Positions 24,536 through 40,430 of a DNA stretch of 64,000 nt are shown in pieces (position 1 is the first letter of the stretch; every line of letters starts with the position of its first letter). The stretch is from SAR202 cluster bacterium (GTDB lineage Bacteria; Chloroflexota; Dehalococcoidia; Lucifugimonadales; VGZR01): positions 167,322 to 231,321 of the forward strand of contig VGZR01000001.1 in the NCBI GenBank assembly GCA_016872515.1. Reading direction: 5' to 3'. A program made the position numbers and the translations under genes. The notes under the pieces are model-generated. The model was not told where the DNA came from and searched no databases. It saw nothing but the letters and a program-made list of their open reading frames with translations.

Positions 24536-24585
24536 GTTCAGGGTGAACGCGTTTCTATCCATACAAACCAGAAGTCTCAACAGAC

Positions 24586-24720
24586 TCCTTTCCCCCTTGA
24601 GGGGGGAGGGCCGGCGTGGGGGTGAGTCCGTCGCCCCTCCTCTGGAGCCTGCCCTGAGCGCAGCCGAACGGGGAGAGGCCTTTGAACTCCACGACGCAGC
24701 CCAAAGGGTGAGGGGTAGGT
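24586..24720. repeat. mosaic repeat, two units filling the rplP-rpmC spacer
   Basis: CTCCTTTCCCCC-TTGA-GGGGGGAGGG..GGGGGTGAGTCC, then CCCCTCCTCTGGAGCCTGCCCTGAGCGCAGCCGAACGGGGAGAGG...CCCAAAGGGTGAGGGGTAGGT. It ends 1 nt before the rpmC ATG. Confidence 0.85.
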
Positions 24721-24721
24721 A

Positions 24722-24925
24722 ATGAACATCGCTGAGATCAGAGCGCTTTCCGATGCCGATCTGGCTACCCAGCTCGGCGAGAGCGAGCGCGCCCTTATGA
24801 ACCTCCGCTTCCGCGTGGCGACCCTCCAGCTCGCCAACGTGAACGAGGTCAGGAAAACGCGCCGTCAGATTGCCAAGATTAAGACGGTCATGCGCGAGAG
24901 GGAGCTGGCCACGGCCGCACAATGA
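24722..24925 (+). CDS. rpmC: 50S ribosomal protein L29
   Basis: 67 aa. EIRALSDADLATQLGESERALMNLRF. Assigned also by operon position. Confidence 0.9.
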   Translation: MNIAEIRALSDADLATQLGESERALMNLRFRVATLQLANVNEVRKTRRQIAKIKTVMRERELATAAQ

Positions 24926-25428
24926 GCTACGAACGACGCAAGATACGCATCGGCAAAGTCGTCAGCAACAAGATGACGAAGACGGTCGTCGTCTCGGTGG
25001 ACTGGCGCGGTCAGCACAAGCTGTACCGCAAATCCATCAGACGCCGCAGCCACTTCATGGCCCACGACCCCGAGGGCAAGTGCCGTCTGGGAGACACCGT
25101 CAAGATTATCGCGACCCGGCCCATCTCCAAACTCAAGCGCTGGCGCGTGACAGAGGTCCTGGCCCACGAGGAGATGGCCACCGAGATCCGGCCCGAGGAG
25201 ATTGCGGTGCCGGAGGAAGTCCAAGCGCCGAAGGCCGTGGCCCCTGTGGCTGCTGAGGCCGCCGCCGAAGCCCCGGCGGAAGCCGAAGAGAAGCCCAAGG
25301 CCAGGCGGACACGGGCCGAGGCCGAGGCCGCCGAACAGCCCGCCGCTGAGGCCAAGCCGAAGGCACCGCGCAAGTCGCGCGCCAAGGCGGAAGGCGACGC
25401 CTCCGGAGAGGGAGAAAACGCACAGTGA
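24922..25428 (+). CDS. rpsQ: 30S ribosomal protein S17 with an Ala/Glu/Lys-rich C-terminal extension of about 85 aa
   Basis: [16 protein letters not shown]...RWRVTEVL, followed by a low-complexity tail. Confidence 0.9.
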
Positions 25429-25793
25429 TCCAGCTGCTTTCTCGTCTGAAAGTCGCCGATAACTCAGGCGCCAGAATCATAAGCTGCGTCGGCATCCCCG
25501 GTGGCAGCGGGCGGCGCTACGCCGCCGTCGGAGATATCATCATGGCCGCCGTCAAAGAGGCCACGCCCGCCGCGGGCATTAAACAGGGCGAGGTGGTCAA
25601 GGCGGTCGTCGTGCGCACCGTGCGCCCGCACCGCCGCGCCGACGGCTCCAACATCCGCTTCGATGACAACGCCGCCGTCATCATCGGCGATGACCTGCTG
25701 CCCCGCGGAACGCGCATCTTTGGCCCCGTCGCCAGAGAGCTGCGCGAGAAGAACTTCATGCGCATCGTTTCGCTCGCGCCGGAGGTGCTCTAG
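25425..25793 (+). CDS. rplN: 50S ribosomal protein L14
   Basis: GTG start overlapping the rpsQ stop (GTGA). [17 protein letters not shown]. Confidence 0.95.
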
Positions 25794-25795
25794 CC

Positions 25796-26107
25796 ATGCA
25801 CGTCCGGACCAACGACACCGTCCTGGTCATCAAGGGCCGGGACAGAGGCAAGCAGGGTAAGGTGCAACGCGTCCTCCCCAGAGAGGGACGGGTCCTAGTC
25901 GAGGGAGTGAACCTCGTCAAGCGGCATACCAAGGCGAGGGCCGGCATCCGTCAGGCGGGCATCATCCAGAAGGAGATGCCCCTCCGCGCGGCCAACGTCC
26001 AGCTCATCTGCGCCAAGTGCACCAAGCCGACCAGGGTCGGCTACAAGCGGCTGGCAGACCACACCGGCCTGCGCGTGTGCCTGCAGTGCAAGGAAACGAT
26101 TGAGTGA
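25796..26107 (+). CDS. rplX: 50S ribosomal protein L24
   Basis: [18 protein letters not shown]. Confidence 0.95.
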
Positions 26108-27087
26108 TGAACGAGCAAGAAGAAAAGCGCCAAAACCAAGCTAAAGCCGAGGGCGAGCCCTCGCAGCCGAAGGCGCCGCGCAAGCGCGCCTCGCCTCTCG
26201 TGAAAGCAGAGGCGCCGGCCGCCGAGGACTCCAAGCCCGAGACGCGGAAGCCCGTAGGGGCCCACGGCCGTGCGCCCAAGGCGCCGAAGCCCAAAGCGGA
26301 AGCAGCGCCGGAGTCGGCGGTCGCGGCGGTCGCGTCTGCGGTTCCAGCCAAGGCACAGGCCCCCAAGGCCGAAGCACCCAAAACCGCCGAGGCTAAGGCA
26401 AAGCCCGAAGCTGCCGCTGGGGCAAGGCCCGCAGGCAAGGGCCCCCAACAGAAGGGCAAAGGTAAGCCCGAGGCCTCCGCGGATGAGCCGCCCGCTCTCA
26501 AGGGCCCCCTGCCTCCGCCGAGACTCCTCGACAAACAACGCAAGACCGTCGGTCCCGCGCTGATGAAAGAGTTCGGCTACAAGTCACCGATGCAGGTCCC
26601 CACGGTCAAGAAGATCGTGGCCAACATCGGCATGGGCGAAGCTCTCACCAACCCCAAGGCCATCGAGAACGCCACCGCCGACCTCTCCGCCATCACCGGG
26701 CAGAAGCCCGTGGCGACCAAGGCCAAGAAGTCCATCGCAGCCTTTAAGGTCCGCCAGGGACAAGTCATCGGCCTGAGCGTCACCCTACGCGGACGCCGCA
26801 TGTGGGAGTTCCTCGACCGGCTCATCAGCTCCGCGCTGCCCAGGATCAGGGACTTCCGCGGCGTGTCCCGCAAGGCCTTCGACGGCCGCGGGAACTACTC
26901 CTTGGGCGTCCATGAGCAGGTCATCTTCCCTGAGATCGACTACAACGCCGTGGACCGGATGCGCGGCTTCCAGATAATCATCGTCACTTCCGCCAACTCG
27001 GACCGCGAGGGCATGCGGCTCCTTGAACTTTTGGGCGTGCCCTTCGAGCGGCCTGAGGCGGGCAGGGCGCAGTCCAGGGTAGCGTAG
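26104..27087 (+). CDS. rplE: 50S ribosomal protein L5 with an Ala/Lys/Pro-rich N-terminal extension of about 140 aa
   Basis: The canonical L5 core begins near [41 protein letters not shown]. There is no ATG/GTG/TTG in frame close to the core start. The ORF opens at GTG 26104/ATG 26107, overlapping the rplX stop. Confidence 0.85.
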
Positions 27088-27133
27088 AGTCACCGTCACA
27101 GCATTGAGCGATTAGACAGGTCGGTGGTAAAAA

Positions 27134-27319
27134 GTGGCAAGCGAACGACAAAAGGCCAAGTGGCGCAGAGAAGCCAAGTTTTCCAGCCGGATCCATAACC
27201 GGTGCAACCGGTGCGGCAGGCCCAGGGCGTACATACGCCAGTTCGGCCTTTGCCGCCTCTGCTTCAGGGAGATGGCCCTGAAGGGCATGCTCCCCGGCGT
27301 CCGGAAGGCGAGTTGGTAG
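27134..27319 (+). CDS. rpsN: 30S ribosomal protein S14 type Z (zinc-binding)
   Basis: 61 aa. [23 protein letters not shown]. Confidence 0.95.
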
Positions 27320-27327
27320 GGAGACAT

Positions 27328-27393
27328 TCCCTCCGCTCCCTCATGGGGAGGGGCCTTTGGCTCCGACCGCGTCGGAGGCAAAGGGTGAGAGGT
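27328..27393. repeat. mosaic repeat, A-B-T unit in the rpsN-rpsH spacer
   Basis: CTCCC-TCAT-GGGGAGGGG, then CCTTTGGCTCCGAC-CGC-GTCGGAGGCAAAGG, then GTGAGAGGTA. Confidence 0.8.
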
Positions 27394-27431
27394 AAAACAA
27401 ACGTGGCAACATACGGTACGAGGGACCATAG

Positions 27432-27833
27432 ATGGCAGTAACAGACCCCATCGCGGATATGTTGACGAGGATTAGGAATGCCTCTTCGGTGCGGCACGAC
27501 TCGGTCTCGATACCCGTGTCGAAGGCGAAGATTGCCCTTGCGAAGCTGCTCAAGGAAGAGGGCTTCATCGAAGCGTACGAGGTTCAGCAGGGCAAAGCCG
27601 CTCCAGCTGCCCTGAAGATCTATCTGCACTACCGCAACCGCACCGACCCGGGCATCAAGGGCCTCAAGCGTGTGAGCAAGCCCGGCCTGCGGGTCTACGT
27701 CGGCAAGGGAGAGATACCCCGGTACTACGGTGGCCTGGGCGTGGCGGTCCTGTCCACCTCCCAAGGCGTGATGACAGGAAAACAAGCGTGGCACAAGGGG
27801 CTCGGCGGCGAGCTGCTCTGCTACGTGTGGTAG
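27432..27833 (+). CDS. rpsH: 30S ribosomal protein S8
   Basis: [17 protein letters not shown]. Confidence 0.95.
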
Positions 27834-27842
27834 GAGTCTGAC

Positions 27843-28388
27843 GTGTCGAGGATCGGCAGAAAACCAGTAGTCTTGGCCAAGGGCGTCGAAGCGGCGGTCA
27901 GCGGCCAAGAGGTCACCATTAAAGGCCCGAAGGGCACCCTCAAGCACGCCGCCCACCCCTTCGTGAAAGTGGCCCTGAAGGACGACGCGCTCGTCGTGGA
28001 GCGCTCCTCGGACGAGCCGTTCCACCGCGCACTCCACGGCCTGACCCGCAGCCTGCTGGCCAACATGGTCACCGGCGTCACCGCAGGCTACACCCGGAGC
28101 CTCGACCTCGTCGGCGTCGGCTACCGTGCCCAGCAGAGTGGCAAGAACGTCTCGTTGAGCGTGATGATGACCCATACCGTGGACGTCGTTCCCCCGCCCG
28201 GCATCACCCTCGAAGTCGAGGGACAGAACCGCGTCCATGTCCGCGGCATTGACAGGCAGCTGGTCGGCAACACCGCCGCGAAGATCCGGGCCGTGCGCCC
28301 CCCCAATGCCTACACCGGCAAAGGCATCCGCTATGCGGACGAGAATGTGAAGCTCAAGCCCGGGAAGAGCGCGAGGAAGGCCCAATAA
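27843..28388 (+). CDS. rplF: 50S ribosomal protein L6
   Basis: [16 protein letters not shown]. Confidence 0.95.
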
Positions 28389-28756
28389 TGGGTTCTGTAA
28401 AGACAGCTAGCCACCGCAGGATCATCAGGCACGAGCGCGTCCGCCGCAAGATCGTCGGCACCGCCGAGCGGCCCCGCCTTGCCGTCTTTCGCAGCCTCAA
28501 CCACATCTATGCGCAGGTGATTGACGACACCAAGCGGGCCACCCTCGCCTCCGCATCCAGCCTCGACCCCAAGCTGCGCGGCGACGCTGCCAAGGCCCGC
28601 AAGAGCGACGTTTCCAAGCTGGTCGGCGCCCTCGTCGCCCAGAGAGCCAAAGAGAAGGGCGTGAAGACTGTCGTCTTCGACCGCGGCGGCACCCAGTTCC
28701 ATGGCCGTGTGAAGGCCCTGGCTGACGCAGCCCGTAAGGGAGGTTTGGAGTTCTGA
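28388..28756 (+). CDS. rplR: 50S ribosomal protein L18
   Basis: [34 protein letters not shown]. Confidence 0.95.
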
Positions 28757-29319
28757 TGACTAGCATGCGGCCCCAACGGGCGCCGGAGACCGTCGTCTTC
28801 GGTGGTGAAGAGTTGACCCTCCAAGAGAGGGTCGTCAAGATTTCCCGAGTCGCCAAGGTCATCAAAGGCGGCCGCCACCTCAGCTTCGCCGCGGTCGTCG
28901 TCGTCGGCGACGGCAACGGCCACGTCGGCATCGGCCACGGCAAGGCCGACGCCGTCCCCGATGCCGTCCGCAAAGGCGCCTACGACGCCAAGAAGCACCT
29001 CGTGACGGTGCCCCTCAAGGACCGCACCATCCCCCACGAGGTCACCGCGCGCTCCGGCGCCTCCGAGGTCAGGCTCCTCCCCGCCGTCCCAGGCACCGGC
29101 GTCATCGCCGGCGGCGCCGTACGCGCCGTCGTCGAACTAGCAGGCATCAAAGACATCCTCACCAAGGCCCACGGCTCGACCAACCCCGTCAACTGCGTGA
29201 AGGCCACCTACTCCGCCATCCAGATGCTCACGAACCCTAAAGAAGAGTTGGACCGCCGCAGGCAGGTGGCCGAGATGGTCGGCGCCAGGCTGCAACGCAA
29301 AGTCCAGCGCAAGGTCTGA
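28756..29319 (+). CDS. rpsE: 30S ribosomal protein S5
   Basis: [39 protein letters not shown]. Confidence 0.95.
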
Positions 29320-29324
29320 TACCC

Positions 29325-29507
29325 ATGGCCAAACTCACCATCACCTGGAAAAAGAGCGCCATAGGCTACACCCAAGACCAGCGGCGCACCATCGCCGGCC
29401 TCGGCCTGCGCAAGCTCCACCAGACTGTCGTGCACGACGACACGCCCTCCATCCGCGGTATGGTCAACCTCGTGCGGCACCTCGTCGAAGTAAAGGAGAC
29501 CGCCTAA
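29325..29507 (+). CDS. rpmD: 50S ribosomal protein L30
   Basis: 60 aa. [29 protein letters not shown]. Confidence 0.9.
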
Positions 29508-29517
29508 AGATATCATC

Positions 29518-29613
29518 GGGTAGGGTGGGGACATCCCCTCCCCCCTTGAGAGGGGAGGACATCTGGGCTGACTAGGTCGGCCCAAAGAGGTAGGGCTGAA
29601 GCCCCCCTCACCC
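29518..29613. repeat. mosaic repeat, T-A-B-T in the rpmD-rplO spacer
   Basis: GGGTAGGGTGGGG, then CCCCTCCCCCC-TTGA-GAGGGGAGG, then CATCTGGGCTGAC-TAG-GTCGGCCCAAAG, then AGGTAGGG...CCCCCCTCACCC. Confidence 0.85.
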
Positions 29614-29640
29614 AGAGTCGAACGAGCGGAAAAAGGAAAC

Positions 29641-30084
29641 ATGGAACTACACCAACTGAGACCACCAAAAGGCGCTAGGCGCGACCGCAAACGCGTCGGC
29701 CGCGGCGACGGCAGTGGCCACGGCAGCTACTCCGGCAAGGGCATGAAGGGCCAGAAGTCCCGCACCGGCGGCGGCGTCCGCCCCGGCTTCGAGGGCGGCC
29801 AGATTCCGCTCATCAAGTCGCTCCCCACCGCCCGTGGCTTCAACAACAAGTTCCGCGTCCCCTACGCGCCCGTCAACCTCGACCGGCTCGCCCGCTTCCC
29901 CGCCAACAGCGAGGTGACCCCCGCGAGCCTTGCCGAAGCTGGCGTCATAGACGCAGGCACCCGTGTGAAGGTCCTCGCCCGCGGCGAGGTCGCCGTTCCC
30001 CTCACCGTGGCGGCCCAAAAGTTCTCCAAGGCAGCCCGCCAGAAGATCGAGGCCGCAGGCGGCACCGTCAAGGAGCTCGCTTAG
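29641..30084 (+). CDS. rplO: 50S ribosomal protein L15
   Basis: RVGRGDGSGHGSYSGKGMKGQKSR. Confidence 0.95.
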   Translation: MELHQLRPPKGARRDRKRVGRGDGSGHGSYSGKGMKGQKSRTGGGVRPGFEGGQIPLIKSLPTARGFNNKFRVPYAPVNLDRLARFPANSEVTPASLAEAGVIDAGTRVKVLARGEVAVPLTVAAQKFSKAARQKIEAAGGTVKELA

Positions 30085-31403
30085 TGGTCCGCCAGACCCA
30101 AGCCTTCAAGCAAGAGTCAAGCCGGCCGCGGCTCATCCAGTCCATGATCGACGCCATGCGGGTCCCCGATCTGCGGACGAAGATCCTTTTCACCCTTGCC
30201 ATGCTCGTCATCTTCCGTTTCGTCGCCCACGTGCCGGTGCCCGGCGTGGACCCCCAGGCCCTCTCCCAGGCCTTCGAACAGAGCGCCATCCTCGGCTTCC
30301 TCAACCTCTTCAGCGGCGGCGCCTTGGCCAATCTCAGCGTCGCGGCCCTAGGCGTCTATCCCTATATCACCGCGTCCATCGTGATGCAGATCCTCACGCC
30401 CGTCATCCCGTCCCTCAAAGCCCTGTCCCAGGAGGGCGAGTTCGGCCGTCAACGAATCAATCAGTACACCCACTACCTCGCCGTCCCCATCGCCGCTCTC
30501 CAGGCCTGGGGCCAGCTCACCCTGCTCCAGCAGTCCGGTGTCCTCCCCGGTGTGGACTTCGGACTAAACCTCGGCACTCTCGCCATGATTTTCTCCATGG
30601 TGGCTGGCACCATGTTCCTCGTCTGGCTCGGCGAGCTCATCACCGAGCGCGGCCTCGGCAACGGCATCTCTCTCATCATCTTCGGCGGCATCGTTGCCAG
30701 CGTCCCCTCCATCATCGGCCAAGGCTTCCTCGAGCGCGACGATGCCGGTGGACTTCTCCTCCTTGCCGCCTTCGGCATCGGCATCATCTACCTCGTCGTC
30801 CTCTTCACCGAGGCACAGCGCCGCGTCCCCGTCCAGTACGGCCGCAGCGTCTTTCGCGGCGGACGCATGCAGCGCCAGAGCGGCTCCACCTTCCTCCCAC
30901 TCCGCGTCAATTCGGCGGGCATGATCCCCCTCATCTTCGCCTTCTCCATCGTCATCCTCCCGGCGACCGTCGCCAGCTACTTCTCCAACACCAACGCCGC
31001 CGCCCGCCTCGTCACCGACCTGCTCAGCCCCAACGGCCTTGTGTACTACATGCTCGTCGTCTTCCTTGTCGTCATCTTCACCTTCTTCTACACCATGGTC
31101 GTCTTCCAACAACAGAACCTGGCCGAAAACCTCCAGCGCAACGGGGGCTTCATCCCAGGCATACGCCCAGGCAAACCCACCAAGGACTACCTCAACCGAG
31201 TCATCATCCGCATCACATGGGGCGGCGCCCTCTTCCTCGGCTTCGTCGCCTTCCTCCCGTGGCTGGTGACCCAGGCAACGGATATCCGCGCGCTCACCAT
31301 CAGCGCCACCGCGCTCCTCATCATGGTGGGCGTCGCGCTGGACACCATGAGGCAGCTGGAGGCGCAGCTCCTCATGCGCAACTACGAAGGCTTTATCAGG
31401 TGA
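30084..31403 (+). CDS. secY: preprotein translocase subunit SecY
   Basis: Polytopic 439 aa ORF. ILFTLAMLVIFRFVAHVPVPGVD. GTG 30084 overlaps the rplO stop; ATG 30144 is an alternative start. Confidence 0.9.
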   Translation: MVRQTQAFKQESSRPRLIQSMIDAMRVPDLRTKILFTLAMLVIFRFVAHVPVPGVDPQALSQAFEQSAILGFLNLFSGGALANLSVAALGVYPYITASIVMQILTPVIPSLKALSQEGEFGRQRINQYTHYLAVPIAALQAWGQLTLLQQSGVLPGVDFGLNLGTLAMIFSMVAGTMFLVWLGELITERGLGNGISLIIFGGIVASVPSIIGQGFLERDDAGGLLLLAAFGIGIIYLVVLFTEAQRRVPVQYGRSVFRGGRMQRQSGSTFLPLRVNSAGMIPLIFAFSIVILPATVASYFSNTNAAARLVTDLLSPNGLVYYMLVVFLVVIFTFFYTMVVFQQQNLAENLQRNGGFIPGIRPGKPTKDYLNRVIIRITWGGALFLGFVAFLPWLVTQATDIRALTISATALLIMVGVALDTMRQLEAQLLMRNYEGFIR

Positions 31404-31415
31404 CATCGCGCTTTT

Positions 31416-31484
31416 TCTCCTCCCCCCCCCTTGAGGGGGAGGACCTTCGGCGCCGTTGCGGCGACGAAGAGGTAGGGGGTGCGA
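31416..31484. repeat. mosaic repeat, A-B-T unit in the secY-adk spacer
   Basis: CTCCTCCCCCCCCC-TTGA-GGGGGAGGACC, then TTCGGCGCCG-TTG-CGGCGACGAA, then GAGGTAGGGGGTG. Confidence 0.85.
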
Positions 31485-31535
31485 TACAAGGCAAGATGCG
31501 GCGGGAATCATTAGGTAAGGTTGTGGCCTAACGCG

Positions 31536-32189
31536 ATGAGAGTCATCCTTCTCGGCCCGCCCGGCGCGGGCAAGGGTACACAGGTAGAGCGGGTTGCCAA
31601 ACACCTCGGCGTGAATAGGGTGTCGTCCGGCGACCTCTTCCGTGACCACGTCCAGAAGAACTCCGAGCTGGGCCGCCTGGCCCGCTCCTACATGGACCGC
31701 GGTGCGCTCGTCCCCGACGACGTCACCATTCGCATGGTCATGGGCTGGATCAACGCTCCGGAGCAGGCCAAGGGGTTCGTCCTCGACGGGTTCCCGCGCA
31801 CCCTCGCCCAGGCCGGCGCCCTCGCCCAGGCGATGAACGGAAAGGGCGGTATCCACAGGGTTCTGTATATCAATGTCCCGGAAGCGGAGCTGGTCTCCAG
31901 GCTCAGCGGCAGGCTCGTCTGCAGGTCCTGCCATACTCCCTACAACAGCAAGATGTCGCCCCCGAAGAAAGAAGGCAAGTGCGACAAGTGCGGCGGCCAA
32001 CTCTACCAGCGCGAAGACGACAAGCCGGAGGCCGTTCGCAAGCGCCTCCAGGTGTATGTGAAAGAGACCGAACCCCTCGTGGAGTACTACCGGAGCAAAG
32101 GCCTGCTCGCCGAAGTCAACGGCGGGCGCTCCATCGAAGAAGTAGGGAAAGCTTTGGTGGAGGCGGTAACTCAACAAGTTCATCGCTAG
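31536..32189 (+). CDS. adk: adenylate kinase (zinc-lid type)
   Basis: MRVILLGPPGAGKGTQ. Lid CRSC...CDKCGG. Confidence 0.95.
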   Translation: MRVILLGPPGAGKGTQVERVAKHLGVNRVSSGDLFRDHVQKNSELGRLARSYMDRGALVPDDVTIRMVMGWINAPEQAKGFVLDGFPRTLAQAGALAQAMNGKGGIHRVLYINVPEAELVSRLSGRLVCRSCHTPYNSKMSPPKKEGKCDKCGGQLYQREDDKPEAVRKRLQVYVKETEPLVEYYRSKGLLAEVNGGRSIEEVGKALVEAVTQQVHR

Positions 32190-32200
32190 GGTGGAGCATC

Positions 32201-32316
32201 GTACCCCTCACCTCTTTAGGAGTGAGGGTCGCGATTCCTCCCCTCCTCTTGAGGGAGAGGCCTATGGCCGCGCTGGGCCCGGCCATAGAGCCTGCCCTGA
32301 GCTTGTCTAGCGGAAC
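32201..32316. repeat. mosaic repeat cluster in the adk-map spacer
   Basis: CCCTCAC..GTGAGGG hairpin, CCTCCCCTCCTC-TTGA-GGGAGAGG, CCTATGGCCG..CGGCCATAG, GAGCCTGCCCTGAGC module. Confidence 0.85.
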
Positions 32317-32453: not shown

Positions 32454-33173
32454 ATGCGCCAGGCCGGAAGGGTCGTGGCGGCAGCAAAAGCTGCCGTCGC
32501 CCTCGCCGTCCGGCCGGGCATGACGACGGGAGAGTTGGACCGTATCGCTGAGGAGGAGATCAGGCGTCTCGGGGCTACGCCCTCGTTCAAAGGTTATCAC
32601 GGCTTCCCGGCCACGATCTGCGCGTCAATCAACGAGGAAATCGTCCACGGCATCCCTGGCGCCCGCGTAGTGCACGATGGCGACCTTCTCAGCCTGGACT
32701 TCGGCGCCATCGTCGGCGGCTTCCATGCCGACAGCGCCTTCACCATGGGCGTGGGACAGGTCTCCCCGGACGCCCAGGCCCTCGTGGACGCGACTCGCGA
32801 GGCCCTGCGGCGCGGCATCCAGCAGGCCAGGGCCGGCGCCAGGATTGGCGACATATCCGCCGCCGTCCAGGAATACGCGGAGAGCAAGGGCTACCAGGTC
32901 GTCCGCCAGTACGTCGGCCACGGCATAGGCCGGGCGCTGCACGAAGACCCCCAGGTGCCGAACTTCGGACTCCCCGGCAGGGGCCCCGTCCTCCGCGAGG
33001 GGATGGCCATCGCCATCGAACCGATGCTCAACATGGGGGGCTGGCAGACCAGGCAACTCGACGACGGATGGACCGTGGTGACCGCCGACGGCAGCCTGTC
33101 GGCCCATTTCGAGGACACCATCGCCTTCACAGAGCGTGGCACCGAAGTCCTGACCGCCACCATGGCGGCCTAA
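32454..33173 (+). CDS. map: type I methionine aminopeptidase (5' end uncertain)
   Basis: MRQAGRVVAAA...SINEEIVHGIP...DGDLLSLDFG...HGIGRALHE...IEPM. The conserved N-terminal ITIKSPSEIEL is encoded in frame upstream but without ATG/GTG/TTG. Confidence 0.9.
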   Translation: MRQAGRVVAAAKAAVALAVRPGMTTGELDRIAEEEIRRLGATPSFKGYHGFPATICASINEEIVHGIPGARVVHDGDLLSLDFGAIVGGFHADSAFTMGVGQVSPDAQALVDATREALRRGIQQARAGARIGDISAAVQEYAESKGYQVVRQYVGHGIGRALHEDPQVPNFGLPGRGPVLREGMAIAIEPMLNMGGWQTRQLDDGWTVVTADGSLSAHFEDTIAFTERGTEVLTATMAA

Positions 33174-33251
33174 GATGACATTTGGAGATAAAGAGCATCC
33201 GGCCTTGCACAAGAAGTTCTGCATCATGCGGAACGGGACTGCCTTCATGCG

Positions 33252-33274
33252 TTTCTCCCCCTTGAGGGTGAGTT
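33252..33274. repeat. mosaic repeat remnant (A-T)
   Basis: TTTCTCCCCC-TTGA-GGGTGAGTT. Confidence 0.5.
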
Positions 33275-33303
33275 AGAACTGACGTCTGGCTATATGGGTA
33301 AGG

Positions 33304-33522
33304 ATGGCTAAAAAAGAGACGATAGAGGTCGAGGGGACCGTGAAGGAGTCGTTGCCCAACGCCACCTTCAAAGTCGAGTTGGCCAACGGCCACCTCGTCA
33401 CCGCCTATATCTCAGGAAAGATTAGATTGAATTTCATACGGGTCCTGCCCGGAGACAGAGTACTGGTGGAGCTTTCACCCTACGACCTGTCCCGAGGCAG
33501 AATCACCTACCGCTTTAGGTAG
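33304..33522 (+). CDS. infA: translation initiation factor IF-1
   Basis: [41 protein letters not shown]. Confidence 0.95.
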
Positions 33523-33682
33523 TTAGGAGTGATGAAAAGATGGTCATATCGTCTTTAACGAGGCGCCGCCGTTCTATCAGACTGAAAGGCTATGATTATG
33601 CAAGCTCCGGGGCGTACTTCCCGCTGAGATGGAGTCTCGATAATAAAGGAAGTCCAAAGTCCAGAGTTGTGGAGTCGTTGAC

Positions 33683-33796
33683 ATGAAAGTATCCGCGTCG
33701 GTAAAAGTACGGTGCGCCAAGTGTAGAGTCATCCGCCGAGGGGGCGTGGTCAGGGTCATCTGCTCGACCGCCAAGCACAAGCAAAGGCAGGGGTAA
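33683..33796 (+). CDS. rpmJ: 50S ribosomal protein L36
   Basis: Below the ORF-track size cutoff. Hand translation gives [37 protein letters not shown] with stop TAA at 33794-33796. Confidence 0.9.
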
Positions 33797-33798
33797 CG

Positions 33799-34182
33799 AT
33801 GGCAATCATCTCAGGCGTCAACATCCCAGATAACAAGCGCGTGGAGATCTCCCTCACCAAGCTTTACGGCGTCGGCCCGGCTATGGCCAAACAGATACTC
33901 GCCAAGGCCGGCGTGGAGAACAACCCGCGCGTGAAGGACTTGAGCGAGACTGAACTGAACCGCATCCGCGAGCTTGTGGACAAGGAGCACACCGTCGAAG
34001 GCGACCTGCGCCGCGAGACGAACCTCAACATCCGGCGCCTCGTCGAGATCGGAAGCTACCGCGGCATCCGCCACCGCAAAGGCCTCCCCGCGCGCGGCCA
34101 GCGCACCCGCACCAACGCGCGGACCAAGAAGGGCGCCCGCAAGACGGTCGCCGGCCGCAGACACACCGTCGCCAAGAAGTAG
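33799..34182 (+). CDS. rpsM: 30S ribosomal protein S13
   Basis: [20 protein letters not shown]. Confidence 0.95.
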
Positions 34183-34240
34183 GTTGAGGAAAACCTTGAA
34201 CAGAATGGCTTACCTTTTAGAAAAGAGGAGTCCCCCTAGA

Positions 34241-34358
34241 CTCCCTCCCCCCCCTCGAGGGGGGGAGGATGTGGGGTGATTCCCGTGCGGGGTGGGAGTG
34301 CGTATCCTCCTCTCCCCTTGAGGGAGAGGCCCCAATGAAATCGGGGGTGAGGGGTAGC
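34241..34358. repeat. mosaic repeat, A-T plus A'-D units in the rpsM-rpsK spacer
   Basis: CTCCCTCCCCCCCC-TCGA-GGGGGGGAGG..GGGGTGA, then CCTCCTCTCCCC-TTGA-GGGAGAGG plus CCCCAATGAAATCGGGGGTGAGGGGTAG. Confidence 0.85.
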
Positions 34359-34394
34359 AAGAGCGTTCAAGCAAGTAGGGAGCAGGAGTAACGG

Positions 34395-34838
34395 ATGACG
34401 ACGGACAAAGAAAAGGACAAGGGACAAGGACAGGAAAAGGAACGGCAGCCAGCTGCCAGGCGGCCCAGAGCCAGGAAGAAGGACCGCAAATCGGTGCCGG
34501 TTGGACGGGCTTACGTCCAGTCCACCTTCAACAACACCATCGTCACCCTGACCGACACCTCCGGCCGCGTCCTCTGCTGGGGTAGCGCCGGCACGGCTGG
34601 TTTCAAGGGCTCCCGCAAGTCCACCGCCTTCGCCGCCCAGCGCGCCGGTGAGGAAGCTGCACGCAAGGCCATGGAGCAGGGGCTGCGCCAGGTGGACGTC
34701 TTCGTCCGTGGCTCCGGCGCCGGCAGAGAAGCCGCCATCCGTGCGCTTCACGCCGTCGGCCTCCTCGTCACCAGCATCCGCGACGTCACCCCCATCCCGC
34801 ACAACGGCTGCCGCGCCCCCAAGCGCCGCCGCGTCTAG
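34395..34838 (+). CDS. rpsK: 30S ribosomal protein S11 with basic N-terminal extension
   Basis: [14 protein letters not shown]...[11 protein letters not shown]. Confidence 0.95.
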
Positions 34839-34902
34839 GACAGAGGCCGAGCATCTGTGCATAACAAGCTTCGTCTCATGCGGACAGAGAACCCTTCAAA
34901 AC

Positions 34903-35012
34903 TTCCCTCCCCCCACAAGGGGGAGGGTCAGGGTGCGGGTGACGCTTCCTCCTCTCCCCTAGCGGGAGAGGCCTATGACCTGCCAGGGGCGGGTCATAGG
35001 GTGCGGGGTAAG
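34903..35012. repeat. mosaic repeat, A-T plus A'-B-T
   Basis: CCCTCCCCCC-ACAA-GGGGGAGGG, CCTCCTCTCCCC-TAGC-GGGAGAGG, CCTATGACC..GGTCATAGG, GTGCGGGGTAAG. Confidence 0.85.
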
Positions 35013-35060
35013 AGATCTGGAGTCCTGTCTGGTACGAAGGAAGATTGAGGCAAGGTATCG

Positions 35061-35855
35061 TTGGCCCAGGACACCTCTAAGTTCATAGAACGCAACCTCA
35101 CTGAGTTGCTGAACGAGACCTTCGCGGTCTATTGGCGGCACCTCAGAGAGTTCCTGTTGCTCGCCCTCCTCGTCCAACTCCCGCTGGCCGCCATCAGTTG
35201 GGCCGCAGGCGAGGGAGTCGCCGGCTACATCATCGTCCTCGTCTGCGCCATCATCGGCGGTGCCGTCGCCTATGGCGCAGGCATCTACGCGGTGGGCCAG
35301 CAGTACGTCACCGACAAGATAACCATCCGCAACTGCTACCGCAGGGCCCAGTGGCGTCTGCTCTCTCTCCTGGCCATCACCGCTGCCATCACCGTCGTGG
35401 CCATCTTGGGTGTCGGCCTGATTCTGATTGTGGTGCCCTTCCTGGTCGCCATGGTGTACCTGGTGTACTGGTCGGTGGCCGGACAAGCCATCATCATCGA
35501 GGGCCGCAAACCCCTCGACGCCTTGAAGCGCAGCCTCGAGTTGGTGCGGGGCGACTGGTGGCGCGTCTTCGGCATAATCCTCATCTTCCTGCTCGTCGCT
35601 GCGGGCTTTGGCCTCATGGTCAACGCCCCCTTCGTCATCGCCTCGTGGATCGTCGGAACGGAGCCGTCCTCCACCGTGGACGCCGCCCTCCGCTTCTTCG
35701 GCGGCCTGGCCGTCGGCACTGCCGTCGCGCCCATCCTCGCCATCGCTTGGACGCTGCTGTACTACGACCTGAGGCTCAGGAAAGAAGACTACGACCTCGA
35801 GATTCTGTCCCAGGAGTTGGGACTGGTGAGTTCGCAGGCTCAAGGGCCTGCGTGA
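35061..35855 (+). CDS. polytopic membrane protein inserted between rpsK and rpsD (DUF975/GPDPase-membrane-domain-like)
   Basis: 264 aa with about six hydrophobic segments. The overall pattern resembles YciC/DUF975-type proteins; the family call is from memory only. Confidence 0.6.
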   Translation: MAQDTSKFIERNLTELLNETFAVYWRHLREFLLLALLVQLPLAAISWAAGEGVAGYIIVLVCAIIGGAVAYGAGIYAVGQQYVTDKITIRNCYRRAQWRLLSLLAITAAITVVAILGVGLILIVVPFLVAMVYLVYWSVAGQAIIIEGRKPLDALKRSLELVRGDWWRVFGIILIFLLVAAGFGLMVNAPFVIASWIVGTEPSSTVDAALRFFGGLAVGTAVAPILAIAWTLLYYDLRLRKEDYDLEILSQELGLVSSQAQGPA

Positions 35856-35873
35856 AGTAGGTACGGAGAGAGC

Positions 35874-36503
35874 ATGGCCCGCTATACAGATCCGAAATGT
35901 CGAGAGTGCCGTCGCATTGGCGAAAAGCTGTTCCTGAAGGGAGAGCGCTGCTTCACGCCGCGCTGCGCCGTCGAACGCCGCAAGCGCCCCCCCGGTGGCC
36001 CTATCTCCCGCAAGCGCCGCTCCTCCGACTGGAGCATGCGCCTCAAGGAGAAGCAGAAGGCACGCTACACCTACGGCATCCTGGAGCGCCAGTTCCGTAA
36101 GTACTTCGACGCCGCCCGCGAAAAGAAGGGCATCACTGGCGACCTCCTGCTCCAGACCCTGGAGTCCAGGCTCGACAACGTCGTCTACCGCCTCTCCTTC
36201 GCGGACTCGCGCCAGCAGGCGCGCCAGCTCGTCGGCCACGGCCACTTCACCATCAACGGCAAGAGCGTCTCCATCCCGTCCTACCTGGTCAAGAAAGGCG
36301 ACCTCGTCGCCTGGAAGCAGAAGAATGGCAACCTGCCCAAGCTGGCTCTCACCGCCCTCGAAGGCGGCCCCAAGCGCGCCGTTCCCGCGTGGCTCACGGT
36401 TGACGCCGCCAAGGGCAGCGGCCAGGTGATGTCCGAGCCCGACATCTCCTCCACCGACACCGGCATAGACATGCGGCTCATCGTCGAGTTCTACTCCAGG
36501 TAA
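35874..36503 (+). CDS. rpsD: 30S ribosomal protein S4
   Basis: MARYTDPKCRECRRIGEKLFLKGERC. Confidence 0.95.
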   Translation: MARYTDPKCRECRRIGEKLFLKGERCFTPRCAVERRKRPPGGPISRKRRSSDWSMRLKEKQKARYTYGILERQFRKYFDAAREKKGITGDLLLQTLESRLDNVVYRLSFADSRQQARQLVGHGHFTINGKSVSIPSYLVKKGDLVAWKQKNGNLPKLALTALEGGPKRAVPAWLTVDAAKGSGQVMSEPDISSTDTGIDMRLIVEFYSR

Positions 36504-36550
36504 CGATGCAAGAGATGCCTTCCTTGTTCCAGAACGGGAGCCCTCTTATG

Positions 36551-36595
36551 CTCCCCTCCCCCTTGAGGGGAGAGGGCCAGGGTGGGGGTGGATTC
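36551..36595. repeat. mosaic repeat, A-T unit in the rpsD-rpoA spacer
   Basis: CTCCCCTCCCCC-TTGA-GGGGAGAGGG..GGGTGGGGGTGGATTC. Confidence 0.8.
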
Positions 36596-36669
36596 GTAGC
36601 AAGGCCCCTCGCGAGTTCTTGTGCAAACGCTGAGTCGAACTCCTAGCTAAGTCATCGAAGGAGCACTTC

Positions 36670-37719
36670 ATGGTAATAGAGTTTCAGACCCTGGGCGGCA
36701 AGGACACTGCCCCCGAAGAGGAGCAGATGCCGAGCCCGAAACTGACCATCGTCGAGAGCGGCGACCGGTACGGCAAGTTCGCCGTCGAGCCCCTCGAGCG
36801 CGGCTACGGCATGACGTTGGGCAACCCCCTGCGCCGCGTGCTGTACAGCGCCCTGCCCGGCACGGCCGTGACCTGGGTGAAGATAGACGGCGTGCTCCAC
36901 GAGTATGCCACCGTCCCTCACGTCAAGGAAGAGGTCGCCGAGCTCCTCCTCAACGTGAAGGGCATCCGCCTCCGCTCGTCCGTGGACCGGCCGGGCAAGC
37001 TGCGGCTCGAGGTCTCGGGCGCCGGCGAGGTAACCGCGGGGGACATCATGGCCTCCTCCGACTTCGAGGTCGTGAATCCCGAACTGCACCTGGCAACCCT
37101 CGACTCCGCCAAGGCCAAGCTCTCGGTCGAACTCAACGTCGAGCGCGGCACGGGCTACCGCGTCGCCTCCCGCGGCGGCGGCCTGCCCATCGGCGTGCTG
37201 CCGGTGGACGCCGTCTTCTCGCCCATCCGCAAGGTGAACTACCGCGTCGAGCCGACCCGCGTCGGCCAGCGCACGGACTTCGAGCGGCTCACCCTGGAGG
37301 TCTGGACCGACGGCACCATCACCCCGGTGGACGCGGTCAAGCAGTCCGCCAACCTTCTAGTGAAGCACTTCTTCCTCTTCACCAGCGTCCAAGCTCCGGG
37401 CGCCGAGGTCAGCGACACGCCGCCCATCGCTCTGCGCATCTCGCCCGAGCAGTACAACACCCCCGTCGAGAAGCTGGATCTGTCCTCCCGCACCCTCAAT
37501 TGTCTCAAGCGTACCGGCATCGACAAGGTCGGCCAGGTCCTCGAGATGAAGAAAACCGAGCTGCTCCAGATCCGCAACTTCGGCGAGAAGTCCCTCAGCG
37601 AGCTTTACGGCCGACTTGCCTCCATGAACCTGCTGCCCCCCGAGCTGCAGGAGGGCGTCGGCGAGCCGCCGAAGGGCGATGCCGCCGAAGACGACAGCGA
37701 TGACGACGACGAGAAGTAA
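36670..37719 (+). CDS. rpoA: DNA-directed RNA polymerase subunit alpha
   Basis: GKFAVEPLERGYGMTLGNPLRRVLYSALPG. ATG 36670 has a GAAGGAG SD; ATG 36727 is an alternative start. Acidic C-terminal tail. Confidence 0.95.
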   Translation: MVIEFQTLGGKDTAPEEEQMPSPKLTIVESGDRYGKFAVEPLERGYGMTLGNPLRRVLYSALPGTAVTWVKIDGVLHEYATVPHVKEEVAELLLNVKGIRLRSSVDRPGKLRLEVSGAGEVTAGDIMASSDFEVVNPELHLATLDSAKAKLSVELNVERGTGYRVASRGGGLPIGVLPVDAVFSPIRKVNYRVEPTRVGQRTDFERLTLEVWTDGTITPVDAVKQSANLLVKHFFLFTSVQAPGAEVSDTPPIALRISPEQYNTPVEKLDLSSRTLNCLKRTGIDKVGQVLEMKKTELLQIRNFGEKSLSELYGRLASMNLLPPELQEGVGEPPKGDAAEDDSDDDDEK

Positions 37720-37737
37720 CTTCAGAGGAGAACGGTC

Positions 37738-38091
37738 ATGAGGCACGGCGTAGCCGGTTCAAGATTCTCGAGGCCGACGGCCCACCGCAATGCGATGTTT
37801 CGCACGGCGGTGACCGACCTGCTGCGGCACGAGTCGGTCACGACCACGGACGCGAAGGCGCGGGAGGTCCGCAGGCTGGCGGAGAAGCTCATCACGCGCA
37901 GCAGGGCCGGCACGCTGCACCAGCGGCGGCTGGCGGCGGCGTTCCTGACGGACGAGAAGGTGGTCAAGAAGCTGTTCGACGAGCTGGGGCCGCGGTACAA
38001 GTCGCGGCCGGGCGGGTACACGCGCATCGTGAAGATAGGCCCGCGGCACGGCGACGGCGCACCGACCGCCATGGTGGAGCTGGTGCCCTAA
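37738..38091 (+). CDS. rplQ: 50S ribosomal protein L17
   Basis: MRHGVAGSRFSRPTAHRNAMFR. Confidence 0.95.
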   Translation: MRHGVAGSRFSRPTAHRNAMFRTAVTDLLRHESVTTTDAKAREVRRLAEKLITRSRAGTLHQRRLAAAFLTDEKVVKKLFDELGPRYKSRPGGYTRIVKIGPRHGDGAPTAMVELVP

Positions 38092-38116
38092 CTGGCGCCT
38101 GAGGGACCAAGGGACG

Positions 38117-39196
38117 ATGCGGCTGGCATTGGTCATAGAGTACGACGGCACCGGGTACCACGGGTTCCAGTACCAGGAGAACGCGCCGTCGGTGCAGGAG
38201 GAGCTGGAGGCGGCCATCGAGCGGCTCACCGGTGTGCGGCCACGCATCAAGGGCGCAGGCCGGACGGACGCGGGCGTGCACGCGGCGGGGCAGGTGGCGG
38301 CGTTCGACACGGAGTCGGCGTTGCCGCCGGAGACGTTCGTGCGGGGGATGAACCACTACTTGCCGGACGACATCGCGGTGAGGGCCGCGCACAGGGTCGC
38401 GGACGACTTCGACCCGAGGCGGCACGCGTTGGCCCGCGCGTACCGGTACACGGTGCTCAACCTGGCGACGCGGTCGCCGCTGACACGGCGCAGGGCGCTG
38501 CAGGTGGAGGAGCCGCTGGACGTGGCGGCGATGAACGAGGCGGCGCAGGCGTTCGTAGGCGTCCACAACTTCGCGCGGTTCAGCGGGCCGCTGGAGCGGG
38601 AGGAGGCGAGCACGGTGCGGCAGGTCTTCGCGGCGTCGGTGCGGCGGGGGGAATACCCCTCACCCTTTGGTCCTTCCGCGGAAGGACCAAAGGCCTCTCC
38701 CGCAAGGGGAGAGGAGGAAGTGGACACCCCCCTCACCCCTTCGACAAGCTTAGGGCAGGCTCTCGTCCCGACGCCAGTCGGGACAGGCCTCACCCCCTTC
38801 GACCTGGCTCAGGGCAGGCTCGAGGGGAGAGGGAACGATTTCGGGGGAGGCGGCCCTGGCGCGGCGGCGCGAGCAAAGGGTGAGGATGAGGCTCACCCGT
38901 CCGACGGGGCGCCTCAGGATGGGACAATCATCTCTATCGACTTTGAGGGGAACGCGTTTCTGCCGCACCAAGTCCGCCGGATGGCGGGCGCACTGGTGGA
39001 TGTGGGCAAGCGGCGGCTCGCCACAGACGATATCATGGGGATGCTGGAAGGAAGGCCGGACGGGCCGGTGGCAAACACGCTGCCGCCCCAGGGCCTGTGC
39101 CTCATGGAAGTGAGGTACGGGGGCTTCCCTCCTACGAGAAATGAGGAACGGAACGATGCAAGCAAGAAACTACAACCCACGGGCGTCAGAACTTAA
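38117..39196 (+). CDS. truA: tRNA pseudouridine(38-40) synthase TruA carrying an in-frame repeat-derived insertion of about 82 aa
   Basis: MRLALVIEYDGTGYHGFQYQ...GAGRTDAGVHA...YRYTV, then an insertion, then IISIDFEGNAFLPHQVRRMAGALVDVG. 359 aa against about 270 for typical TruA. Confidence 0.85.
   Translation: MRLALVIEYDGTGYHGFQYQENAPSVQEELEAAIERLTGVRPRIKGAGRTDAGVHAAGQVAAFDTESALPPETFVRGMNHYLPDDIAVRAAHRVADDFDPRRHALARAYRYTVLNLATRSPLTRRRALQVEEPLDVAAMNEAAQAFVGVHNFARFSGPLEREEASTVRQVFAASVRRGEYPSPFGPSAEGPKASPARGEEEVDTPLTPSTSLGQALVPTPVGTGLTPFDLAQGRLEGRGNDFGGGGPGAAARAKGEDEAHPSDGAPQDGTIISIDFEGNAFLPHQVRRMAGALVDVGKRRLATDDIMGMLEGRPDGPVANTLPPQGLCLMEVRYGGFPPTRNEERNDASKKLQPTGVRT
38653..38898. repeat. mosaic repeat cluster (three or more units) inside the truA ORF
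   Basis: TACCCCTCACC-CTTTGGTCCTTCCGCGGAAGGACCAAAG-GCCTCTCCCGCAAGGGGAGAGGAGG. Then CCCCCCTCACCCCTTCGACAAGCTTAGGGCAGGCTC-GTCCCGAC..GTCGGGAC. Then CTCACCCCCTTCGACCTGGCTCAGGGCAGGCTCGAGGGGAGAGG. Confidence 0.85.
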
Positions 39197-39872
39197 CCCG
39201 CGCTGGCACGTCATAGACGCGGAGGGCAAGACGCTGGGGCGGCTGTCCACCGAGATTGCCATGAAGCTCATGGGCAAGGACAAGCCGACCTTCGTCAAGC
39301 ACATGAACACCGGCGACTACGTCGTGGTGGTCAACGCGGAGAAGGTGCGCGTCACGGGCAAGAAGCCGGCGCAGAAGATGTACTACCTGCACAGCGGCTA
39401 CCACGGCGGTCTCCGCGAGGAGACGCTGGCGACGGTGCTGGCCAAAAACCCGCGGCGGGTCATCCACGACGCGGTGCGGGGGATGCTGCCGAAGAACACG
39501 CTGGCCATCCACATGCTGACCCGGCTGAAGCTGGTGGTGGGCGGCTCGACGCAGCGCTACCAGTCTCAGATCACCGGCTCGGCCAAGGCCGTCGAGAAGG
39601 CGGCGAAGCAGGCCGCCGAGGCCAAGGTCGCGGAGGCTGCGGCGGCGACCGCGGTTGCGACGGCTGTCGCGGCGCCTGAGCCCGCCAAGACTGCCACGAA
39701 GTCACGCAGGAAGGCGGAGGAGCCAGCCATCACGCTGGCGAAGCCGAGGGCGGCCAAGGCCGCCGAGATGAAGAAGACGGAGCATAAGCCGAAGGCCGAG
39801 ACGAAGTCCGCGGCCACAGAAGCGAAGGCCGATAAGCCCAAGGCCGGCCGCTCGAAGAAGAAGGAGTCGTAG
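39156..39872 (+). CDS. rplM: 50S ribosomal protein L13 with an Ala/Lys-rich C-terminal extension of about 95 aa
   Basis: NPRWHVIDAEGKTLGRLSTEIAMKLMGKDKPTF...GDYVVVVNAEK. ATG 39156 has a GAGGAA SD and overlaps truA by 41 nt. Confidence 0.9.
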   Translation: MQARNYNPRASELNPRWHVIDAEGKTLGRLSTEIAMKLMGKDKPTFVKHMNTGDYVVVVNAEKVRVTGKKPAQKMYYLHSGYHGGLREETLATVLAKNPRRVIHDAVRGMLPKNTLAIHMLTRLKLVVGGSTQRYQSQITGSAKAVEKAAKQAAEAKVAEAAAATAVATAVAAPEPAKTATKSRRKAEEPAITLAKPRAAKAAEMKKTEHKPKAETKSAATEAKADKPKAGRSKKKES

Positions 39873-39900
39873 GGAAAAGAGCGGCCAGGCGGGGCATGGG

Positions 39901-39945
39901 GCCTCCTCCCCCTCGAGGGTGGAGGACTGAGGTGGGAGTGAAGCC
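39901..39945. repeat. mosaic repeat, A-T unit in the rplM-rpsI spacer
   Basis: GCCTCCTCCCCC-TCGA-GGGTGGAGGAC..GAGGTGGGAGTGAAGCC. Confidence 0.8.
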
Positions 39946-40006
39946 TTTTCCTCGATCCATCGGATGGACCAGTACAAAGACATATGGCAAGCATAAGGAG
40001 GCGTAG

Positions 40007-40402: not shown

Positions 40403-40430
40403 CGGCGCAGGCGCGACGAAGGTTTGGATG

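Follow-up and report, generated by a model that had tools for sequence, protein, structure and literature searches.

Why are the junctions between ribosomal-protein genes, which are short in most related bacteria, stretched to between 112 and 264 nucleotides (nt) in one genome, and what fills them? The question is raised by a 64,000-nt stretch of a SAR202 cluster bacterium (the window, C1:167322-231321), which belongs to a metagenome-assembled genome (MAG) of 2.28 Mb in 91 contigs, with 64% G+C and 94% completeness. The + strand of the window carries, from 16.7 to 40.4 kb, rpsL-rpsG-fusA, then genes in the S10-spc-alpha order, then rplQ-truA-rplM-rpsI, on a contig of 236 kb. Ten junctions of this ribosomal cluster are expanded. 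We consider it likely that a genome-wide GC-rich DNA repeat, modular, non-autonomous and of the BoxC-like kind, has inserted at these junctions and is carried passively by the operon.

Expanded junctions and the units within them

We begin with the lengths themselves. A preliminary description of this DNA, made from the letters alone, gave lengths for the ten junctions, and all are correct on recount. For comparison, 35 genes of the host are mapped onto 80 related Dehalococcoidia loci, each taken as SecY +/-10 kb. The SecY relatives all come from uncultured Dehalococcoidia (Chloroflexota), the best of them being 83% identical and that of a same-genus genome 79%. The lengths (in nt) are as follows.

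Junction: host; median of the 80 relatives; same-genus genome
rplP/rpmC: 186; 17; off contig
rpsN/rpsH: 112; 21; 33
rpmD/rplO: 133; 37; -1
secY/adk: 117; 23; 60
adk/map: 264; 139; 155
map/infA: 130; 25.5; 5
rpsM/rpsK: 212; 24; 10
rpsK/membrane-protein gene: 222; 25.5; 23
rpsD/rpoA: 166; 33.5; 60
rplM/rpsI: 134; 3; 3

At these junctions only 0-7% of the relatives (n=80) have spacers as long as those of the host. The same-genus genome is compact at every junction that it covers, so the insertions are recent on the scale of a genus. Judged by this comparison, the expansions are repeat insertions gained after the split from the nearest sampled relatives. The length of adk/map is overstated, as the Map N-terminus GITIKSPSEIE is encoded upstream of the ATG at 32454; the junction is long in all relatives (~140 nt) because this conserved N-terminus precedes the first canonical start codon. 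The segment in question (32397-32453) lies before the first in-frame ATG, GTG or TTG and is conserved in relatives. The map gene probably starts at a non-canonical codon (an in-frame CTG at 32400-32402), or its start is otherwise unusual.

The next question is what the inserted DNA looks like. One or two modular repeat units are found in each expanded junction, map/infA having only a partial hairpin. On one strand a unit reads, in order, a C-rich pyrimidine stem, a loop of the TTGA type and the complementary purine (G-rich) stem; then comes either a 3-nt loop (short type) or a variable GC hairpin B (long type, for example CCTTTGG...CCAAAGG), and finally a G/T-rich tail of the form GGGTGAGGGG or AGGTAGGGG. 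The first three parts form hairpin A, with a pyrimidine stem such as CCTCCTCTCCCC, a loop of TTGA, TTGC or TCGA, and a matching purine stem. The units and the other features of the cluster are listed by position in the window.

24585..24626, + strand: rplP/rpmC unit 1, short type; CTCCTTTCCCCC TTGA GGGGGGAGGG, linker CCGGC, G/T-rich tail GTGGGGGTGAG
24634..24719, + strand: rplP/rpmC unit 2, long type; variable hairpin CCTTTGAACTCC...CCCAAAGG, tail GGGTGAGGGGTAGG stopping 2 nt before the rpmC ATG
27329..27392, + strand: rpsN/rpsH, long-type unit; hairpin A, hairpin B, tail GGGTGAGAGG
29518..29613, + strand: rpmD/rplO, long-type unit; bracketed by GGGTAGGGTGGGG ... CCCCCCTCACCC
31417..31481, + strand: secY/adk, long-type unit; subfamily with tail AGGTAGGGGG
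32204..32313, + strand: adk/map, composite; hairpin CCCCTCACC...GGAGTGAGGG, hairpin A, hairpin B (CCTATGGCC...GGCCATAG)
33252..33272, + strand: map/infA, partial, hairpin A alone; TTTCTCCCCC TTGA GGGTGAG
33540..33620, + strand: infA/rpmJ, decayed N-terminus of a Y1 transposase (RAYT/IS200-like), being the first 27 codons of a 48-codon open reading frame (ORF, 33540-33686); no hairpin-repeat copy
34227..34300, + strand: rpsM/rpsK unit 1; small GGAGTC..GACTCC hairpin, hairpin A, G/T tails
34306..34357, + strand: rpsM/rpsK unit 2; CCTCCTCTCCCC TTGA GGGAGAGG ... GGGGGTGAGGGGTAG
34902..34942, + strand: rpsK/membrane-protein gene unit 1, short type; C-stem, ACAA loop, G-stem, TCA, GGGTGCGGGTGA
34945..35012, + strand: rpsK/membrane-protein gene unit 2, long type; hairpin CCTATGACCTGCC...GGGTCATAGG
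36536..36591, + strand: rpsD/rpoA, short-type unit; small GGGAGC..GCTCCC hairpin, then CCCTCCCCC TTGA GGGGAGAGGG CCA GGGTGGGGGTGG
38653..38898, - strand: in-frame insert of ~88 codons in truA; repeat modules in the opposite orientation
39900..39943, + strand: rplM/rpsI, short-type unit
21773..21793, no strand assigned: rplW/rplB, separate GC palindrome; GAGGCGCAC GGC GTGCGCCCT
40430..40467, + strand: terminator-like hairpin after rpsI, outside the repeat family; GGGGCGGG TTTTCAAA CCCGCCCC, then a T-rich run; minimum-free-energy z = -2.98

Two statements of the preliminary description have to be narrowed. It called these junctions normally compact, which holds as the rule among the 80 relatives; a minority departs from it, with 9-10 long spacers free of repeats in each of three loci (L017, L080, L009). 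Altogether, spacers of 80 nt or longer are found at seven or more junctions in ~10 of the 80 relatives, and these relatives vary in what the spacers contain, from the same motif at other junctions (L027) through other repeats (L012) to no recognisable repeat (the three loci just named). In L012 the rplP/rpmC spacer is 320 nt and the rplE/rpsN spacer 376 nt long, and they carry tandem GGAATAACGCTCACCGCGAACGG-type units and GGGGAAGGGACTAATG-type hairpins. Since these junctions are expanded by a different repeat, invasion of the operon by unrelated repeats recurs in the order. It was also stated that junctions without a repeat do not exceed about 70 nt. This is not strictly true: infA/rpmJ is 160 nt long and holds the transposase remnant in place of a hairpin repeat. 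The rplW/rplB spacer of 70 nt is itself expanded (the relatives' median is 2 nt) and has its own GC palindrome.

A genome-wide family and where its insertions survive

Is the unit peculiar to this cluster? A hairpin detector finds 504 matches in the genome and 153 in the reversed genome, and an asymmetric pattern for the whole unit finds 72-73 matches against 0 in the control; the family is far beyond chance occurrence. Genome-wide there are 319 hairpin loci, 229 of them intergenic by our own crude gene caller (2171 genes, 14.5% non-coding), and hairpin A occupies ~8% of all gaps. The median length of co-directional gaps is 204 nt with a copy and 39-44 nt without. When 13 long units from the window are aligned, compensatory double changes are seen in 11 of the 22 consensus pairs, and two subfamilies change all three blocks in concert. 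The expanded spacers fold into local GC hairpins of 9-13 bp, with the Shine-Dalgarno and start regions partly open; folding z-scores of whole spacers range from -3.1 to +1.0. A search of the window against Rfam gives no family at gathering score, the sub-threshold matches being at chance level only.

The family extends through the order, in which 157 of 301 genomes contain the whole-unit pattern, with 0-243 copies each and a patchy distribution within genera: the host has 72 and the same-genus genome 5, the reversed-pattern control giving at most a few per genome. Other lineages carry units at different ribosomal-protein junctions and in either orientation (seven sense in L027; three antisense in L026 and two in L031; L063 has antisense copies in this operon as well), and the positions are not conserved among lineages. 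It is at the DNA level that the repeat family spreads and decays, being patchy between close relatives, clustered and, as described below, oriented by strand asymmetry.

We turn to the placement of the units within the cluster. Tolerance had been noted at ten or more sites, and repeats are indeed found at 11 or more. They also lie within what are single operons in model bacteria, and the classical boundaries are compact here: rpsQ/rplN, which we take to be the S10/spc boundary as in E. coli, measures -4 nt, and rpmJ/rpsM, presumably the spc/alpha boundary, 2 nt. With a strict detector 9 of the 35 gaps in the ribosomal cluster are occupied (26%; 11 by eye), compared with 151 of 2011 (7.5%) elsewhere in the genome (odds ratio 4.3, p = 0.001). 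Copies are clustered in general, with a variance/mean of 3.7 in 10-kb bins, and the adjacent non-ribosomal flank at 40.4-61.2 kb has 12 of its 19 gaps occupied (63%). The notion that the operon is a special target or exception therefore does not stand. With a flank denser than itself, the operon is neither protected nor uniquely targeted, and lies in a regional hot zone.

Within the cluster the choice of junction is not even. Invaded junctions correspond to real spacers in relatives (medians of 17-37 nt) and spared ones to ~2 nt (Mann-Whitney p = 0.001). The overlapping junctions are all intact (rplC/D, rplD/W, rpmC/rpsQ, rpsQ/rplN, rplX/E, rplF/R, rplR/rpsE, rplO/secY), and every downstream gene keeps its Shine-Dalgarno sequence, that of rpmC possibly supplied by the repeat tail. 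Because overlapping, translationally coupled junctions are spared and the Shine-Dalgarno sequences kept, the tolerance looks like purifying selection on where insertions survive. One insertion lies inside a gene. The TruA proteins of relatives align contiguously to residues 1-176 and 264-339 of the host protein (truA, 38117-39196) and skip the insert, which splits the PseudoU_synth_1 domain.

Some neighbouring features deserve mention. The membrane-protein gene between rpsK and rpsD (264 aa, 35061-35855) has a weak DUF7847 match below the Pfam cut-off; the same-genus genome and 22 of the 80 related loci have it at the same position. The rplE ORF (window 26104-26580 region) encodes 327 aa with the L5 domain from residue 161, after a Lys/Ala/Pro/Glu-rich N-terminal extension of ~140 aa; if the extension is untranslated, rplX/rplE would be a further spacer, of 400 nt. 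The rpsQ product (window 25160-25428 region) is 168 aa long, with the S17 domain at residues 11-78 and a low-complexity C-terminal tail resembling the rplE extension. At 58264-60660 a unit of 800-870 nt is repeated three times in tandem with 74-90% identity; it corresponds to three adjacent paralogous genes on the minus strand, flanked by repeat units.

Strand polarity and the explanations of spread

All 13 intergenic units of the cluster are in the sense orientation. Does transcription set this orientation? In co-directional gaps genome-wide the ratio of sense to antisense is 35:21 (p = 0.08). A much sharper rule is given by GC skew, computed on coding DNA and applied where its absolute value exceeds 0.05: of 100 cases, 88 have the top strand of the unit on the locally C-rich strand (88:12, p = 2e-15), as have 49 of 56 (49:7) in co-directional gaps. 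The skew does not depend on gene strand, and where the two conflict, skew wins 17:3; an orientation set by transcription was dropped for this reason. Since orientation tracks GC skew, the uniform sense within the operon is a by-product of strand polarity and gives no evidence for a function on the mRNA. Within the window the units change orientation between 41.4 and 42.7 kb, close to where the skew switches (~38-41 kb), genes at 41.6-44.7 kb being still on the + strand.

Several observations on the skew profile can be added. The switch just past the ribosomal cluster is abrupt, from about -0.1 to +0.2, and repeat density peaks there. Several such switches give the profile a sawtooth form (contigs C1, C9, C11, C16, C19), and bins within 15 kb of an abrupt switch have ~5 times more repeats. 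The coding-strand skew of the ribosomal-protein genes is -0.034 in the host, the median of the 80 relatives being +0.076.

Is the polarity related to replication? The dnaA gene of the host lies at a contig end, with weak skew nearby. A second, independent lineage (G041, OZ220685.1) offers a complete long-read chromosome of 3.57 Mb with 168 exact copies of GAGAGGGNNNGGGTGAGGGTGA and none of the control. Here 64 of 79 copies (64:15) are on the locally C-rich strand in 21 sampled regions of 20 kb. Copies diverge from dnaA at 1.3255 Mb, by 62:12 left of the gene and by 53:24 to its right (p = 5e-11), with a polarity that is blocky and imperfect, and they are concentrated in the half of the chromosome centred on dnaA. 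The ribosomal-protein operon is 60 kb from dnaA and has six exact copies in 20 kb, compared with 0.047 per kb genome-wide.

A trace of a transposase is found in the infA/rpmJ spacer. The peptide RRRRSIRLKGYDYASSGAYF from the 48-codon ORF agrees with the N-terminus of PF01797 (Y1 transposases) at nearly every residue over a stretch of ~17-20, after which the ORF diverges, and the stop codon of the ORF overlaps the rpmJ start (ATGA). In a large protein search all 7 matches are PF01797 proteins or are named as transposases, each matched at its N-terminus; Pfam, NCBIfam, plasmids, the rest of the genome and six Y1 loci of the order give no match to the peptide. As it matches PF01797 N-termini, a Y1 transposase gene must once have been inside the operon and has since decayed. 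The remnant keeps a single-strand mechanism of the HUH type alive as a hypothesis and does not establish the mechanism.

Readings at the level of RNA have to be weighed against insertion of passive DNA. The preliminary description expected hairpins in such mRNAs to affect, among other things, termination. A scan of 22000-41900 gives no terminator-like site on the sense strand, the units being followed by G-rich tails with no U-tracts; the sole hairpin with a T-rich run stands after rpsI, at the real end of the cluster, and the single promoter-like match is at chance level. That the repeats are ordinary terminators or promoters at operon boundaries, or artefacts of MAG assembly, might be suggested by GC hairpins after stop codons and by a genome in 91 contigs. 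These scan results and the compact classical boundaries speak against the former; against the latter, the units differ from one another, each is flanked by unique conserved genes on the contig of 236 kb, and their motif is found again in the ribosomal-protein operon of a complete chromosome assembled from long reads. We regard both as very improbable. Another reading is a role as selected RNA elements, namely 3'-exonuclease barriers, processing sites or cistron insulators setting ribosomal-protein stoichiometry. Some E. coli REP (repetitive extragenic palindromic) sequences act as 3'-exonuclease barriers or processing sites, and the uniform sense orientation, the 9-13-bp GC hairpins with their compensatory changes and the 3-4-fold enrichment of the operon over the genome in two lineages would fit such a role. 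So would the ORFs that bridge 5 of the 11 spacers, each taking up 83% or more of its spacer and stopping no further than 25 nt from the start codon that follows. These ORFs are unsystematic, being absent from 4 of the 11 spacers, and the shuffle null is biased for GC-rich hairpins; a translational relay was not adopted for these reasons. Moreover, orientation follows skew over gene direction, and the skew rule by itself makes 13 of 13 in sense unsurprising (p = 0.18). Three other lineages (L026, L031, L063) have antisense copies in this operon, the positions are unconserved, most relatives including the same-genus genome do without the units, and compensatory changes are equally expected for DNA palindromes. 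We find a selected role on the RNA improbable.

Two further readings concern how the DNA moves. The units could be replication-polar elements, with the G-rich strand on one replication strand and diverging from the origin, which spread into single-stranded DNA at the fork, perhaps at heavily transcribed operons close to the origin. We hold this tentatively, as a possibility that is somewhat unlikely as a whole. If true, it would account for the hot spots at ribosomal-protein operons in two lineages, and the family would be the first of BoxC/PIT type with a demonstrable polarity, giving a handle on its movement; either the leading strand would be C-rich in these Dehalococcoidia, or their chromosomes would be mosaics of inverted blocks recorded by the repeats. 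Also rather unlikely is a narrower version of the insertion reading, in which the units are of the REP/REPIN type and were moved by a RAYT-like (REP-associated tyrosine transposase) Y1 enzyme of the HUH class acting on hairpins of the lagging-strand template, the enzyme having since been lost. IS200/IS605-type Y1 enzymes insert into the lagging-strand template while it is single-stranded, which the observed polarity resembles (PMC6006769). The units are hairpin-rich and extragenic, the infA/rpmJ remnant matches PF01797, and Y1 matches show a weak positive trend with motif-rich genomes (12 of 81, compared with 16 of 220; p = 0.07). Strong Y1 matches, on the other hand, are unassociated (p = 0.7), no unit flanks the remnant, and BoxC of E. 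coli has never been tied to a RAYT (PMC4666352). Nor is there a PF01797 gene in the 94%-complete MAG or in the complete G041 chromosome, where 168 identical 22-mers bespeak a recent burst.

The preferred reading, insertion of a passively carried DNA repeat, can then be put as a sequence of steps. The ribosomal cluster, lying in a hot zone, was colonised after the split from the nearest sampled relatives. Its copies would be passengers that are passively co-transcribed and filtered by purifying selection, rather than regulators. Their strand polarity would arise because single-stranded DNA at the fork is where copies insert or where they survive, and an HUH/Y1 transposase, now lost, may have driven the spread. 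Passive co-transcription, with selection removing harmful placements, is the most economical reading.

Several points weigh against it. GC skew changes sign many times in these genomes and its link to replication is an assumption; taken together with dnaA in G041, the skew would imply a C-rich leading strand, which is unusual. PF01797 is missing from the host MAG and G041, as said, and is matched in only 28 of the 301 genomes of the order, being absent from 69 of the 81 motif-rich ones (85%). Terminal inverted repeats and target-site duplications, the hallmarks of MITEs, were not recognised by eye in the junction sequences, the nearest relative, at 79% SecY identity, offering no alignable empty site. 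In both independent lineages the operon is richer in copies than the genome average, and in G041 it is ~3-fold denser than its immediate flank; this enrichment could mean a preference or benefit beyond tolerance. A function on the mRNA is possible.

What would passive insertion mean? The cluster would be a natural experiment, in which about a dozen stable GC hairpins reveal where an essential operon can accommodate 100-200 nt of structured RNA between its genes. Polarity of a kind unseen in E. coli suggests a process that acts on single strands and is tied to replication, so that the mechanism can be put to the test. In fragmented genomes such as MAGs the repeats would mark strand polarity and blocks of rearrangement, and they inflate spacers and ORFs, as truA shows with its 88 added codons.

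Comparison with known repeats

The BoxC or PIT (potential intrastrand triplex) elements of E. coli, called "triplex motif" repeats, have been on record since the 1990s. We know of no accepted function or spreading mechanism for them.

The published pattern of this kind of repeat, TM_ECO, starts from a C-rich stem of ~9 nt and reads CCCTCNCCC N3-6 GGGNGAGGG N3 GGGNGAGGG, with one mismatch allowed (Holder et al. 2015, PMC4666352, citing Hoyne and Maher 2000). The G041 copies, CCCTCTCCC TAA GGGAGAGGG TTG GGGTGAGGG, match it exactly. In the host the short units match with about one mismatch, and in the long units loop 2 is replaced by hairpin B; the three-block layout is present in the short units at 24585-24626, 34902-34942, 36536-36591 and 39900-39943. 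The likeness is therefore one of architecture, with a C-rich stem, a 3-6-nt loop, a G-rich stem, a 3-nt loop and a second G-rich block.

The two families also share their habits. TM_ECO repeats of E. coli are intergenic, have no known link to mobile elements and differ greatly in copy number between close relatives (PMC4666352), and the present family is likewise intergenic, with dozens to hundreds of copies, sharp differences between close relatives and no mobile-element link. In E. coli K-12 they are clustered in the origin-proximal half (PMC4666352), much as the G041 copies cluster around dnaA. PIT/BoxC elements have shown neither promoter nor terminator activity in E. coli, and the TM_ECO triplex, shown in vitro, is not supported in vivo (PMC4666352). 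When the third block is set against the purine strand of the hairpin (triads G·G-C, A·A-T, T·A-T), individual units fit at 8/8 or 8/9 positions. Genome-wide the mirror register, at 0.801 and only 2.7 standard deviations above permuted tails, does not do better than the direct register (0.800), the sequences being too G-rich and too nearly symmetric to discriminate between the two.

The differences are equally clear. TM_ECO was reported from 262 genomes, of Proteobacteria (PMC4666352), whereas the present host belongs to the Dehalococcoidia (Chloroflexota). Many of its units have a variable GC hairpin for the second loop, and copies are found within the ribosomal-protein operon and in frame in truA. 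The family is strongly strand-polar with respect to GC skew and dnaA, whereas the E. coli copies have no strand bias (PMC4666352).

REP, BIME and REPIN sequences resemble the units in being short, extragenic, GC-rich hairpins present in hundreds of copies, often within operons, co-transcribed, and single or in mosaics (PMC3116915, PMC3733652, PMC6006769). The remnant of a Y1 transposase in the host operon and a polarity that fits single-strand transposition extend the likeness. They differ in that there is no intact RAYT in the host or in the complete G041 chromosome and no REPtron, and in that the unit is an asymmetric arrangement of three blocks, not a simple palindrome; nor are Y1 genes associated with motif abundance across the 301 genomes. 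The REP tag is GTAG or CGTC; GTAG is found in many tails here (GGGGTAGG, AGGTAGGGG), inside the G/T-rich block and away from simple palindromes. Bracketed or inverted arrangements are few (29518-29613, 32204-32313).

Small repeats are also known from inside the operons of other bacteria: Correia elements (Neisseria), ERIC/IRU (enterobacteria) and BOX (pneumococcus). The Correia elements are marked by terminal inverted repeats and by TA duplications, and may carry promoters or RNase III sites. As non-autonomous hairpin repeats tolerated in transcribed spacers, those of essential operons included, these families are alike to ours; their sequences and architectures are unrelated, and Correia-type features are unseen in the host units.

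We found no description of Chloroflexota repeats of this type in the literature. The host range of the BoxC-like architecture would be enlarged by its abundant and patchy presence in an order of uncultured Dehalococcoidia, where half of the 301 genomes have it, in up to 243 copies. Going by its sequence and layout, we assign the element to the BoxC/PIT kind of repeat, as a Chloroflexota variant that has gained a hairpin module and shows a strand polarity unreported for E. coli.

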